DNA from: an uncultured Anaerolineales bacterium
GTDB lineage: Bacteria > Chloroflexota > Anaerolineae > B4-G1
Direction: 5' to 3'
Assembly (NCBI GenBank): GCA_964568065.1
Contig: CAZMOT010000020.1
Location: 1-35,216, forward strand
Length of the DNA stretch: 35,216 nucleotides
Shown here: positions 7,318 through 11,453 of the stretch, piece after piece
Layout of the letters: the number at the start of each line of letters is the position of its first letter
Numbering within the stretch: the first letter of the stretch is position 1
Made by a program: the position numbers and the translations under genes
The notes under the pieces: model-generated
Told to the model about the DNA's origin: nothing
Database searches by the model: none
Seen by the model: only the letters and a program-made list of their open reading frames with translations

Positions 7318-8757
7318 ATGCCTATCAAAGTTCCATGGCTCAAGGGGGTCTTTCCCGCCCTCGTCACGCCTTTCGTGAGAAAGACGGAGGAGGTTGACGA
7401 GGAGGCCTACCGCCGCCTCATCCGCTCTTGTCTGCCCCACGTGGACGGACTGGTCACCAGTGGCACCACGGGTGAGTTTCCCTATCTGACTCGCGAGGAG
7501 CAGCGGCGGCTCATCGTCATTGGTGTGGAGGAGGCGGGCGGCAAGCCGGTCGTCGCTGGCTGCGGTGCTTCGTCCACCCAAGAGGCGCTCACCCTCGCCC
7601 GCGACGCCAAAGATGCCGGCGCGTCGGCGGCCCTCATCGTCACCCCCTACTTCCTCCACCCCTCCGACAAGGGCGTCTACCAGCACTTTTACGACATCGC
7701 CACCGGTGTGGACCTGCCCATCATCCTCTACAACATCCCCCAGGTGATGGACCGCTACCTGCCGCGCACCGTCGTCGAGGACCTGGCCGACCTGCCGAAC
7801 GTGATCGGTCTCAAGGACTCCTCCGGCAACCTGACCTACACGATGGAACTGCTGGAATACGCCGGCGACCGCATAGACATCTTCATCGGCCACGACGAGG
7901 TCGTTCTGCCCGCGCTGGCTGGCGGCGTGAGCGGCATGATCCTGGCCAGTGCCCAGGTCTACCCGGAGGTCTGGCAGGAGGTCATCCGCCTGGTTGGCGA
8001 AGGAAAATTGGCAGAGGCCCGCGCCAGGCAGCGCAGCGTGCAGAAACTCTCGCGCATCTTCTGCCGGTACGGCGGGGGTGTGGCAGTGAAAGCCGCCCTC
8101 AAGATGATGGGGCTCGATATGGGGCCGCCGCGCAAGCCGCTCAAGGCGGTCGGCGGCGCGCTCATCCACGAGACCCGCGCCGAGATCCGGCTCGAACTGG
8201 AGAAGCTGGGCCAGATCCCGGTCGAGGAGACGGCCTTCGAGTATCCCAGCGGCCCGCTCACTGAGCGCTTTGGCGACCTGGAGATCACGCCGGAGACCAT
8301 TGACGCGCACGACCTGCGCGTCGGGAGCGGGGTGACCGGTGAGGGGCTGAACAAGGTCCAGATTGACCTCGTCGCTGGCAGCAAGGAGACGCCGCTGGGC
8401 GACGCCTACGCGCTCCAACTGACCTACCCGCTGCACGGGCGTGAGGCGTTGACGACCATCCTGGAACCGGCGCTTACTGTGCGCCCCGCCACACTGCTCC
8501 TGCCCCAGCTATCGCAGAAGAACCTGCGCCAGGCCAACATGATCTACGGCCCCACGCAGTCGGCGCTGGCGCGGGCCATCGTGGACGCGCTGGAGGCAGG
8601 ACGCATCCCGCCCGCCGCAGTTGACGACGAGGTGATGATCGCGTTGGCGACGGTGCACCCCCGCGCGTTGGACCGCCACGCGCTCCACCAGTCCGTCTAC
8701 GCCGCCGCCACCCAAGCACTGGCGCAGGCATTTGCAGACGCCAGGGAGGAGGGATAA
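7318..8757 (+). CDS. Fusion protein: DapA/DHDPS-family class I (Schiff-base) aldolase domain + C-terminal formaldehyde-activating-enzyme (Fae)-like domain
   Basis: RBS AGGAGG, then [19 protein letters not shown]...[11 protein letters not shown]...YNIPQ...IGLKDSSG (Schiff-base Lys context). The C-terminal ~190 aa ([20 protein letters not shown]...[41 protein letters not shown]) aligns with Fae ([20 protein letters not shown]...[40 protein letters not shown]). Confidence 0.75.
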   Translation: [479 protein letters not shown]

Positions 8758-8758
8758 C

Positions 8759-10231
8759 ATGGGCTACAAGACTGAATGGTTCAAAGGGATCTTTCCGGCG
8801 CTGGTGACGCCGTTCAGTGCGGACGATAAACTGGACGAGGCGGCCTACCGCGAACTGATCCGCTTCGTACTGCCTCACGTAGACGGCGTGGTACCCTGCG
8901 GCACGACTGGCGAGTTCTCGTATATGACGCTGGAGGAGCGCAAGCGGGCCGTCGAGGTCTGCCTGGACGAGGTGAACGAGCGCGTGCCGGTGGTGGCCGG
9001 CACTGGCTGCACTTCCACCCGCGAGACGGTGGCGCTGACGCAGTGGGCCAGAGACGCAGGCGCGACCGGCGCGCTGGTCGTCGCTCCCTACTTCGTCACG
9101 CCCACCTGCAACGAGGTCTACGATCACTACAAAGCGGTGGATCGGGTGGGGCTGCCCATCGTGCTCTACAACATCCCGCAATGCGCTGGCACCCACTTCA
9201 AGTGGTGGACCGCCGAGGGCGGGCTCCTCGACTTTGACAACACCATCGGTATCAAGGATTCCTCCGGCGACCTGCCTTTCCTGGACGCCATGTTCGAGAA
9301 AGTCAAAGGAAAAGTGTCCATCTTCGTCGGCCACGACGAGGTAGTACAGCCCGCGTTTGCGGCGGGCGCCGACGGAGCCATCCTGGCTAGCGCCAATCTC
9401 ATCCCCGACGTCTGGCAGCGCGTCTACCGCGCCACGCAGGAAGGCGATCTGGAGACGGCACAACACTGGCAGCAGCGGGTACAGAAGCTGGTGCGCATCA
9501 TCGTGCGCTGTAGTTCCACCCAGGCCGTCAAAGAAGGCCTGCGCATGATGGGGATACCTGTCGGCGACTCGCGCCACCCGATTATGCCTGGCGGCGGCTT
9601 CAAGCGCGAGGACTATGAGGAGTTGCGCCTGCAATTGGAAGCGTTGGGCAAGATCGCCCCGGCCAACGTGGTCTACGACCTGGGTGAGCGACAGGTGGAG
9701 ACCCAGCTTCCAGCCACGCCGCAGACACCGCGCACGATCTCCGGCTTCACGCTGAAGGTGGGCGAGGGGTTCGCCGGGCCGCCGTTTCAGGAGCTGGCGC
9801 ACGTGGACCTGCTGCTAGGCCTGAAGGACGGTCCTGTGGGACGGGCCATTGAGCGCGCGATGGAAGAATGGGGAGAGGAGCGGGGTCTGCGGATCATCGT
9901 CGAGCGGCCGTGCACGTTGCTGGTTCCCACTGTGACCATCCGCACGGCCAAGCAGCGCCGCCTCTTCTACGAGCACGCCGCTGAGGGGGTTAACCTGGCC
10001 ATCCGGTTGAGCATCGAGGATGGCTTCTTGCCCGCAGCGATCCTGGACGATGTGGTGCTCATCGCCAACGTCTTTGTGCACCCGGCTGCATCCATCGCCA
10101 AGCGGGTGGAATTCAACAACTACAAGGCCACCCGTCACGCCATCCGCAAGGCATTGGAGGGCCGCCCTACGGTGGAGGAACTAATCCGCGAGAAAGCGGC
10201 GGCACGCCATCCCTTCCGCTACGCGCCGTAA
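8759..10231 (+). CDS. Second DapA-family aldolase::Fae-like fusion protein (tandem paralog)
   Basis: [19 protein letters not shown]...[10 protein letters not shown]...YNIPQ...IGIKDSSG. The C-terminus ([23 protein letters not shown]...[57 protein letters not shown]) matches Fae closely. Confidence 0.8.
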   Translation: [490 protein letters not shown]

Positions 10232-10283
10232 GTTCAGCTAGCCAAGGGGCATTGCGATCCCTTCGGAGCGTGAGGATAGCCTA

Positions 10284-11453
10284 ATGAGACATCTAACCCA
10301 TCTGGAGTGTTCTCTCTGTGGCAAGGAATACAAAGCCGATGAATTGCAAGGGACGTGCCCCGACTGCGCCCGCCCACTGCTGACTCGCTACGATCTGGCA
10401 TTGCTTCGGTCGCTGGACCGAGATGCGCTGATCACACACGAGCCCACGATGTGGCGCTACCGCGCGTTGCTGCCGGTGCGTGATGAGCGCGTAGTGGTGA
10501 GCCTGGGGGAGGGTTTCACGCCCCTGCTCCATGCCAGTCGGCTGGGCCAGGAACTGGGGCTGCCCCACCTGTACATCAAGGATGAGAGCCTCACCCCCAC
10601 TGGCTCCTTCAAAGCGCGGGGGCTGGCGGTGGCTATCTCCCGCGCGCGAGAACTGGGAGTCAGGGAGGTCGTCATCCCCTCGGCGGGCAACGCGGCCGGC
10701 GCGATGGCCGCCTACGCTGCCAGGGCCGGCCTGCGGGCCCACGTCTTTATGCCCACCGATGTCCCCGCCCCCTTCCGCCTCGAGTGCCGGGCGCTGGGCG
10801 CTGAGGTCACGCTGGTGGATGGCTTGATCACAGATTGTGGTAGGGAAGCGCGGAGAGGCGCAGAGCAGCACGGCTGGTTCGATCTCTCCACGCTTAAGGA
10901 GCCCTATCGCTTGGAGGGCAAAAAGACGATGGGCTACGAACTGGCCGAGCAGTTCGACTGGGAACTACCCGATGTGATCATCTACCCCACAGGCGGGGGC
11001 ACCGGCCTCATCGGGATGTGGAAGGCTTTCGGGGAGCTCGCTGAGCTGGGGTGGATCGGCGACCACCGCTCGCGCATGGTGACGGTGCAGTCCACGGGCT
11101 GCGCGCCCATCGTCCGCGCCTTTCACGCCGGTGAGGAGTTCGCCACACCCTGGGAAGGAGCCCAGACGGTGGCGGCCGGACTGAGGGTACCGGGTGCCGT
11201 GGGTGACTTCCTGATGCTGCGAGCCCTACGTGAGAGCAACGGCACCGCCGTCGCCGTCGCCGACGAGGCGCTGCTAGACGCACAAATGCGCATCTGCCGC
11301 CTCGAGGGCACCTTCGCCTGTCCCGAGGGCGGCGCCACGCTGGCCGCGCTGGAGGTGCTGCTGGCACAGGGTTGGATATCTCCTAACGAACACATCGTCC
11401 TGTTCAATACCGGCACCGGCCTCAAGTACCCCGGCGTGTTCGAGGATCACTAG
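10284..11453 (+). CDS. thrC: Threonine-synthase-family PLP enzyme with N-terminal C4 zinc ribbon (archaeal-type ThrC / cysteate-synthase-like)
   Basis: CSLCGKEY...CPDC ribbon, the PLP-lysine motif TGSFKARG, a glycine loop PTGGGTGLIG, 389 aa. Confidence 0.65.
   Translation: MRHLTHLECSLCGKEYKADELQGTCPDCARPLLTRYDLALLRSLDRDALITHEPTMWRYRALLPVRDERVVVSLGEGFTPLLHASRLGQELGLPHLYIKDESLTPTGSFKARGLAVAISRARELGVREVVIPSAGNAAGAMAAYAARAGLRAHVFMPTDVPAPFRLECRALGAEVTLVDGLITDCGREARRGAEQHGWFDLSTLKEPYRLEGKKTMGYELAEQFDWELPDVIIYPTGGGTGLIGMWKAFGELAELGWIGDHRSRMVTVQSTGCAPIVRAFHAGEEFATPWEGAQTVAAGLRVPGAVGDFLMLRALRESNGTAVAVADEALLDAQMRICRLEGTFACPEGGATLAALEVLLAQGWISPNEHIVLFNTGTGLKYPGVFEDH

Follow-up and report, generated by a model that had tools for sequence, protein, structure and literature searches.

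Two adjacent genes in a 35,216-nt stretch of contig CAZMOT010000020.1, from an uncultured Anaerolineales bacterium (the whole stretch is referred to here as the window), each fuse a DHDPS-family aldolase to a domain resembling formaldehyde-activating enzyme (Fae). These genes, termed A and B, fill positions 7318-11453 together with a ThrC-like gene, all three being called as open reading frames (ORFs) on the same (+) strand. Judged on their sequences, the Fae-like domains of A and B split the canonical Fae signature between them, each holding the half that the other lacks. The reading tentatively favoured, with slightly less than even confidence, is that A and B form a one-carbon (C1)-coupled heteromer, in which a Schiff-base aldolase is joined to a methylene-tetrahydropterin/formaldehyde site and carries out hydroxymethyl transfer involving a 2-oxoacid, in the manner of PanB or of the archaeal Fae-Hps fusion.

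Organisation of the gene pair

Profile searches were made with Pfam and NCBIfam on the ORFs of the window. Gene A (7318-8757, +) encodes a protein of 479 aa, designated the A-type subunit, in which Pfam places a class I, DHDPS/NAL-family aldolase TIM barrel at aa 8-278 (7339-8151) and a Fae-like domain at aa 335-474 (8320-8739). Gene B (8759-10231, +) encodes the B-type subunit of 490 aa, with the corresponding barrel at aa 8-278 (8780-9592) and the Fae-like domain at aa 334-486 (9758-10216). The DHDPS model matches A with an E-value of 1.2e-66 (224.9 bits) and B with 2.3e-69 (233.8 bits), against a gathering cutoff of 22.1, and the Fae model matches A with 5.7e-32 (111.3 bits) and B with 2.8e-30 (105.8 bits), against a gathering cutoff of 27. 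In addition, the C-terminal domain of B matches the solved Fae of M. extorquens (1Y5Y) over residues 6-166, nearly its full length (phmmer E-value 2.5e-18). Chance likeness to Fae is ruled out by E-values of ~1e-30 in Pfam and 2.5e-18 with 1Y5Y. The original prediction, made from the letters of the window, of two adjacent DapA-family::Fae-like fusion genes is thus confirmed, as is its report of the motifs GTTGE and KDSSG, both of which are present in A and in B.

The two proteins are 41% identical over 476 aligned residues, spanning their whole length. A Shine-Dalgarno sequence, AAGGAGG, precedes the ATG of gene A. The TAA of gene A ends at 8757 and the ATG of gene B begins at 8759, leaving a 1-nt gap, and an internal Shine-Dalgarno sequence, GGAGG, lies within the last codons of gene A, ahead of gene B. 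Such a junction with an internal GGAGG is the usual signature of translational coupling, which is predicted here. A scan of 6900-11700 for promoters and terminators gave no signal above shuffled background.

Complementary Fae-like domains

Forty-six A/B pairs from other genomes, all from loci with both genes complete, were aligned with M. extorquens Fae and with E. coli DapA (the sequence identical to 1DHP); the residue counts given below refer to this census. In A, the position of the catalytic His22 of Fae is occupied by Gln in 40/46 copies (Gln348 in gene A, 8359-8361, +). G85, P86 and Q88 are kept in all 46, Gln414 of the GPxQ motif (8557-8559, +) being the equivalent of Gln88 in gene A, and the equivalent of loop 58-62 (P.LTV) is likewise kept in all 46. 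The C-terminal tail of A is missing in at least 44 of the 46 copies and the HPF motif in every one. In B, His22 is kept in 46/46 copies (His348 in gene B, 9800-9802, +) and the RHPF arm in 45/46, with NVFVHP and NNYKA also kept; the arm reads ARHPF in gene B and includes His484 (10208-10210, +). The Gln88 position of B is Ala in 41/46 (Ala408 in gene B, 9980-9982, +), and the equivalent of loop 58-62 is deleted throughout.

Between the two proteins, His22, D24, GPxQ88, H121 and the C-terminal HPF are all present. Among non-fusion Fae-family representatives covering both positions, 62/78 combine His22 with Gln88 in a single chain; neither A nor B does so, and the combination is obtained only when the two are taken together. 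The original prediction did not note that A and B are non-equivalent copies, an old pair with complementary site halves. All three Fae motif pairs that it quoted come from B alone; A reads VQIDL and ATVHP and has no RHPF tail.

Fae is reportedly a homopentamer, with methylene-tetrahydromethanopterin (methylene-H4MPT) lodged in a cleft that neighbouring subunits form. His22 is said to have been proposed as the acid catalyst, and Gln88 and the C-terminal arm reportedly rearrange upon binding. Since the Fae site is said to sit between adjacent subunits, a composite A/B site is proposed, in which the interface of the two Fae domains would rebuild a single pterin/formaldehyde site, with the His and C-terminal arm supplied by B and the GPxQ and loop by A.

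It was also considered whether gene A is a decaying pseudo-enzyme copy, and this is ruled out, as A is as conserved as B. In the Fae-like region of A, 46 of ~180 columns are conserved at 95% or above, and the Fae domain of A contains a long stretch of residues that are invariant in A only. One further fusion homolog, P0128 (L174:785-2275), has a single Fae domain in which His22, GPAQ, the 58-62 loop and the RHPF tail occur together. From this combination of motifs, the P0128 type is probably the homomeric state from which the A/B pair arose, although it lies on a short contig that ends before any partner gene would be visible.

The aldolase domains

Both N-terminal domains are intact class I (lysine Schiff-base) 2-oxoacid aldolase barrels of the DHDPS/NAL family. 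T44, T45, Y133, K161, G186 and I203 are invariant in all 46 A and 46 B copies, save for one A that deviates at T44/T45. The predicted catalytic residues are Thr50/Thr51 (7465-7470), Tyr138 (7729-7731) and the Schiff-base Lys166 (7813-7815) in gene A, and Thr49/Thr50 (8903-8908), Tyr137 (9167-9169) and the Schiff-base Lys166 (9254-9256) in gene B, all on the + strand.

According to public annotation, A and B would be ordinary DapA enzymes for lysine/diaminopimelate synthesis that carry an extra domain. The public name '4-hydroxy-tetrahydrodipicolinate synthase' fits this interpretation, and the score of A with the dapA equivalog model TIGR00674 (205.2) is barely under the cutoff of 206.15; B scores 194.6, so that both fall below it. 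Arg138 of E. coli DapA holds the carboxylate of aspartate semialdehyde, and at this position the A copies have Val (39), Cys (4) or Thr (3) and the B copies Cys (44) or Thr (2), with Arg in 0/92 sequences; the residues in the window are Val143 in A (7744-7746, +) and Cys142 in B (9182-9184, +). Moreover, the Tyr107 position is Phe in 42/46 A copies, and the lysine-feedback residues His53, His56 and Asn80 are unconserved. A role as ordinary DapA is hardly credible, and plain dihydrodipicolinate synthase was rejected on the lack of Arg138 and the sub-cutoff dapA scores of both proteins.

The NAL and HpaI-like NCBIfam models give scores comparable to the dapA score, and the archaeal KD(P)G aldolase model scores lower. 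A polar GHDE motif is invariant. An AlphaFold2 model of B (predicted local distance difference test (pLDDT) score 88.8, predicted template-modelling (TM) score 0.87) has the two domains joined by a structured beta-hairpin at aa 301-318. The best solved matches to this model in Foldseek are YagE (2v8z) and DHDPS structures, with target TM scores of 0.90-0.95, but these matches span only the first ~295 aa of B (query TM score ~0.56), and no solved protein with both domains was found by this search.

Loss of the aldolase site is also seen in the family. In the fusion homolog P0126, KDSSG reads LDATG, without the lysine, and GTTGE reads SDVGE, suggesting that some lineages carry a catalytically dead aldolase domain together with a B-type Fae domain.

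Distribution and age of the tandem

When one genome per GTDB species was scanned, 446 matching stretches were obtained; the best 80 of these supplied the taxa listed next, and ORFs were called in these loci and then clustered. These 80 stretches include Anaerolineae/Anaerolineales, Ardenticatenales, Caldilineae, Thermoflexia and metagenome-assembled genomes (MAGs) labelled 'Chloroflexia', as well as six Thermoplasmata/Methanomassiliicoccales MAGs (three of them complete chromosomes), one Thermodesulfobacteriota MAG and two proteobacterial MAGs. The order A-then-B is found in all 46 complete loci, including the archaeal ones and that of a Thermodesulfobacteriota MAG, and the gap between the genes is -29 to +13 nt in most loci. 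The archaeal pair loci also encode a DtdA-type D-aminoacyl-tRNA deacylase. Homologs of B with both Pfam domains number in the thousands, mostly from Anaerolineae and with metagenome proteins among them. The Fae family is small, with ~350 clusters at 50% identity, of which the fusions account for at least 6 full-length clusters and several fragments.

Mean pairwise identity is 67% both among A proteins and among B proteins, but only 41% (33-46%) between A and B of the same genome. These values indicate that the duplication giving rise to A and B predates the spread of the pair, and that both copies are under purifying selection.

The tandem is interrupted in some clades. A DUF6485 protein of 64-72 aa is inserted between A and B in three loci (L086:10505-10699, L092:8471-8689 and L093:8495-8689), and a xylose-isomerase-fold protein in three others (L038:7459-8313, L041:6513-7397 and L058:3537-4403); the latter passes the cutoff for CbiR, a cobamide-remodelling phosphodiesterase (140 vs 105 bits). 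Locus L044 has toxin-antitoxin-like genes in the same place. Immediately downstream of B, one Anaerolineae clade carries convergently oriented genes for an aldehyde:ferredoxin oxidoreductase, a class II (fuculose-phosphate-type) aldolase and an FGGY kinase (L086:12504-16649, L092:10590-12951 and L093:10698-12951).

Recurrent upstream partners

Two highly conserved families, c2 and c8, recur upstream of the pair. In 16 of the loci sampled around the pair, from bacteria as well as archaea, the gene for c2 (316 aa) immediately precedes the pair and has the same orientation. Members of the family are encoded at L038:4931-5881, L041:3012-3962 and L072:6617-7567 and in the archaeal loci L050, L060, L061 and L077. 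No Pfam, NCBIfam or PDB sequence match was found for c2. It has ~1,600 homologs, the best 120 of which are 78-97% identical, and all of these 120 that are named are called 'hypothetical'. Its predicted structure is a TIM barrel (pLDDT 73.5) with generic structural neighbours only and an Arg-rich loop of low confidence (pLDDT <50). It was asked whether c2 might be a divergent DHDPS barrel, but the idea was dropped: a weak tblastn match to gene B (E-value 1e-4 in a 35-kb search space) was not borne out by hhalign (probability 3.3%).

Ninety c2-centred loci were sampled, of which the 46 with at least 3 kb of downstream sequence serve as the denominator. The A/B pair lies within 5 kb of c2 in 17/46, and bona fide panB is found by c2 in 11/46 (TIGR00222, 315 bits vs a cutoff of 207). 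The c2-panB loci have at least four different arrangements, reversed order among them. The pair and panB do not occur together by c2 in any of these 46 loci, and the panB-linked c2 proteins are interleaved with the pair-linked ones at 75-80% identity; even among c2 proteins that share more than 80% identity, some adjoin the pair and others panB. In 5/46 loci (7 of all c2 loci) c2 is found by genes for homoserine dehydrogenase and an aldehyde dehydrogenase.

The second family, c8 (~422 aa), takes the upstream position of c2 in 8 loci and is also found before P0128; examples are L062:634-1902, L074:6319-7587 and L174:1-765. No Pfam or NCBIfam model and no PDB sequence matches c8. BLASTP finds no match between c2 and c8, and their hhalign comparison, collinear over 222 columns, is nonsignificant (E-value 0.016, probability 2.9%).

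Proposed reaction and its alternatives

In the proposed mechanism, A and B would assemble into a single bifunctional hetero-oligomer as its two kinds of subunit. A C1 unit at the formaldehyde level would move between a tetrahydropterin, either tetrahydrofolate (H4F) or an H4MPT-like compound, and a 2-oxoacid held as an enamine on the aldolase lysine. The net reaction would be 2-oxoacid + methylene-tetrahydropterin <-> 4-hydroxy-2-oxoacid + tetrahydropterin, in either direction. The simplest substrate pair would be pyruvate/4-hydroxy-2-oxobutanoate, with 3-methyl-2-oxobutanoate/ketopantoate as an alternative. The interconversion of 4-hydroxy-2-oxobutanoate with pyruvate + formaldehyde, the reaction offered as an example in the original prediction, may be the specific reaction. 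The broader idea of that prediction, that an aldehyde is coupled to a pterin-bound C1 pool, is reasonable given the Fae-Hps precedent and, indirectly, the link between c2 and panB.

A more far-reaching interpretation is that the pair represents an unrecognised class of C1 transferase, i.e. a heteromeric Schiff-base 2-oxoacid hydroxymethyltransferase that would draw its C1 unit from a methylene-tetrahydropterin by way of a split Fae-type site. Together with c2 it would, in Anaerolineae and some Thermoplasmata archaea, either replace or complement PanB in ketopantoate/CoA biosynthesis or make 4-hydroxy-2-oxobutanoate, giving a natural route from pyruvate + C1 toward homoserine. This interpretation is considered doubtful.

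Several points weigh against C1 transfer by an A/B heteromer. The association of A with B is predicted from their sequences, and the cofactor could be H4F or an H4MPT-like compound. Formaldehyde and H4F condense spontaneously, without an enzyme, so that a Fae acting with H4F would be unusual. Both Fae-like domains fall below the cutoff of the Fae equivalog-domain model TIGR03126 (A 105.7 and B 116.4 vs 118.05). The composite site also depends on His22 and Gln88 lying on opposite faces of the Fae interface, which we take to be the case. The invariant GHDE presumably resembles the GxDE of sialic-acid lyases; taken with YagE at the head of the structural matches, it is a hint that the aldehyde is larger and hydroxylated, and not formaldehyde. 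In addition, we know of no physiological 4-hydroxy-2-oxobutanoate pathway in these organisms. The sharing of c2 with panB is circumstantial, and would fit membership of the same pathway as well as a PanB 'analogue'. Finally, c2 does not adjoin the pair in this window.

An alternative function is that of a 2-keto-3-deoxy sugar-acid aldolase (or aldolase plus dehydratase) acting on an aldehyde of the glycolaldehyde/glyceraldehyde type, with the Fae fold serving in oligomerisation or regulation and taking no part in pterin or C1 chemistry. YagE, which heads the Foldseek matches, is a 2-keto-3-deoxy-galactonate aldolase, and the invariant GHDE and the comparable NAL, HpaI-like and dapA scores are all in keeping with such an activity. 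So too is the gene content of some loci, with a transaldolase/FSA upstream of c2, the xylose-isomerase-fold gene between A and B in L038, L041 and L058, and the class II aldolase, FGGY kinase and aldehyde:ferredoxin oxidoreductase downstream in L086, L092 and L093. However, conservation of the Fae His in every B and of GPxQ in every A is hard to explain if the domain is purely structural, the sugar-type neighbours are limited to one clade and lie in a housekeeping block (pyrG, POR), and the partner that recurs across clades, c2, pairs instead with panB. A sugar-acid aldolase is considered rather unlikely.

Neighbouring genes in the window

The third gene of the pair locus (10284-11453, +) encodes a ThrC-family pyridoxal-phosphate (PLP) enzyme, 389 aa long, that begins with a Cys4 zinc ribbon (N-terminal motif CSLC...CPDC). 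It scores 597.9 bits with PRK08197, 'threonine synthase' (cutoff 303), and matches Pfam PALP with an E-value of 1.9e-76. On the strand opposite to the pair lie genes for a TrmO/TsaA-like protein (11422-11943, -) and ahcY (11925-13190, -; TIGR00936, 665 bits). Further along, mtnA is found at 22342-23385 (TIGR00512, 433 bits). The flanking methyl-cycle genes listed in the original prediction are thus present, except for its 'adenosine kinase', which can be called only a PfkB-family kinase (14758-15813, -), being far below every NCBIfam cutoff.

That prediction combined these neighbours with the pair into a homoserine/methionine-C1 module, in which a 4-hydroxy-2-oxobutanoate aldolase plus Fae would work with ThrC and the methyl-cycle genes. 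The physical proximity of ThrC-like, ahcY, TrmO-like and mtnA genes in the window speaks for such a module, and the occurrence of c2 by homoserine dehydrogenase and aldehyde dehydrogenase is a weak hint in the same direction. Comparison of loci, however, leaves the module unsupported. A ThrC homolog lies near the pair in just 1 other of the 46 loci (L018), on the opposite strand, and in L007 and L010, the nearest relatives (identity over the Fae-like domain of B 92% and 88%), gene B is followed by the TrmO-like gene with no ThrC. The ahcY/TrmO block, itself opposite in strand to the pair, is syntenic only in the L007 and L010 lineage, and the flanks in other Anaerolineae are unrelated. Furthermore, the 'methyl-cycle' genes are noncontiguous, since a sugar-nucleotide/deoxysugar cluster (14758-21521, -) separates ahcY from mtnA. 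A ThrC/methyl-cycle operon as a conserved feature is ruled out by this comparison, the neighbours are lineage-specific and probably incidental, and the homoserine/methionine-C1 module as a whole is improbable.

The deoxysugar cluster itself comprises the PfkB kinase, a GT2 glycosyltransferase, an RfbH-like PLP enzyme (620 bits), two NAD epimerases/dehydratases and a nucleotidyltransferase. A second PALP-fold PLP enzyme is encoded at 28166-29230 (+) and is related to D-cysteine desulfhydrase/1-aminocyclopropane-1-carboxylate deaminase (TIGR01275, 301 vs a cutoff of 289); its best likeness is to the model for the D-cysteate sulfo-lyase CuyA, under the CuyA cutoff. Upstream of gene A, a large signalling ATPase with an adenylate/guanylate cyclase domain and an AAA_16 ATPase domain occupies 5401-6964 (-). 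The overlapping ORFs 5888-6964 and 5401-6045 divide it between them, and the AAA_16 profile runs on from one to the other, so that a frameshift, from either a pseudogene or a sequencing error, looks likely.

No H4MPT genes were found within the 35,216 nt of the window. H4MPT-linked genes have been reported, in general terms only, in some Chloroflexi (Chistoserdova 2016, PMC5020050).

Annotation and significance

The pair is widespread, with thousands of metagenome proteins beside the 446 stretches; it is strongly conserved in Anaerolineae and has no assigned function. The public names of the A and B clusters vary with the fragment and the pipeline, and include '4-hydroxy-tetrahydrodipicolinate synthase', 'dihydrodipicolinate synthase family protein' and 'formaldehyde-activating enzyme'. 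No paper on a DHDPS-Fae fusion was found in the literature searched; as an architecture it is common, given the 446 stretches, and is in domain catalogues, the precomputed Pfam column of the search database already listing DHDPS and Fae for these proteins.

Anaerolineae are among the most abundant lineages of sediments and digesters. Metagenome surveys treat fae as a marker exclusive to methane/C1 metabolism (e.g. PMC10904782). With the pair labelled as dapA or fae, such surveys may over-count both lysine-pathway and methylotrophy/H4MPT potential, and the mislabelled pair is likely to be a source of false dapA and fae counts.

If the C1-transfer reading is true, PanB would have in this pair a natural counterpart of the Schiff-base type. 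The pair could also provide a natural pyruvate + formaldehyde aldol route, a chemistry that to our knowledge is so far limited to systems engineered for synthetic methanol assimilation. The division of one inter-subunit site between two paralogs would also make a clean case of subfunctionalisation. In addition, the analysis exposes c2 and c8 as two very conserved families without annotation, the first of which is tied to panB.

Comparison with known systems

Among DHDPS-NAL superfamily members, including DapA, NanA, YagE/YjhH and the archaeal KD(P)G aldolase, the TIM barrel, Lys161, Tyr133 and Thr44/Thr45 are common to A and B. In contrast to DapA, A and B are without Arg138 and without the lysine allosteric site, and in contrast to the superfamily as a whole they carry a C-terminal extension of ~190 aa, made up of the structured beta-hairpin and the Fae domain. 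They are roughly equidistant from the characterised subfamilies. With Fae itself (PF08714; M. extorquens 1Y5Y/1Y60), A and B have in common the fold and most of the motifs. However, Fae is a stand-alone pentameric protein with the full site in one chain, whereas neither A nor B is complete, both are fused to an aldolase and both fall below the equivalog cutoff.

PanB (PF02548), a metal-dependent enzyme of class II type, belongs to the phosphoenolpyruvate/pyruvate superfamily and moves the C1 unit of methylene-H4F onto the enolate of a 2-oxoacid, a transfer that a Schiff-base aldolase with an attached Fae-type site could also carry out. Its likeness to A and B would lie in the same proposed net chemistry, between a 2-oxoacid and a methylene-tetrahydropterin, and in the shared genomic partner c2; neither A nor B matches the Pantoate_transf model, and no sequence relationship was found with Pfam or NCBIfam.

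A close parallel is the archaeal Fae-Hps fusion (NF009833), a bifunctional 5,6,7,8-tetrahydromethanopterin hydro-lyase/3-hexulose-6-phosphate synthase. There, too, a covalent fusion links Fae to an aldolase by which formaldehyde is made or released, so that C1 is captured or delivered at the enzyme. Such Fae-aldolase coupling has a precedent in Methanosarcina, in the Fae-Hps fusion reported by Goenrich et al. 2005 (as cited in PMC10904782). The NF009833 model scores A and B at 94.9 and 85.3 against a cutoff of 274, matching through its Fae part only (profile positions ~2-160), and Pfam finds no HPS/OMPdecase domain in A or B. The Fae domain is N-terminal in Fae-Hps but C-terminal in A and B, and its partner in Fae-Hps is an HPS domain of the OMP-decarboxylase fold, whereas in A and B it is a DHDPS-type Schiff-base aldolase. 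Moreover, one gene encodes the whole of Fae-Hps and its Fae site is complete, as opposed to a site split over two paralogs. On these features, A and B appear to represent aldolase-Fae coupling of the kind found in Fae-Hps, but with another class of aldolase and with the site divided between paralogs.

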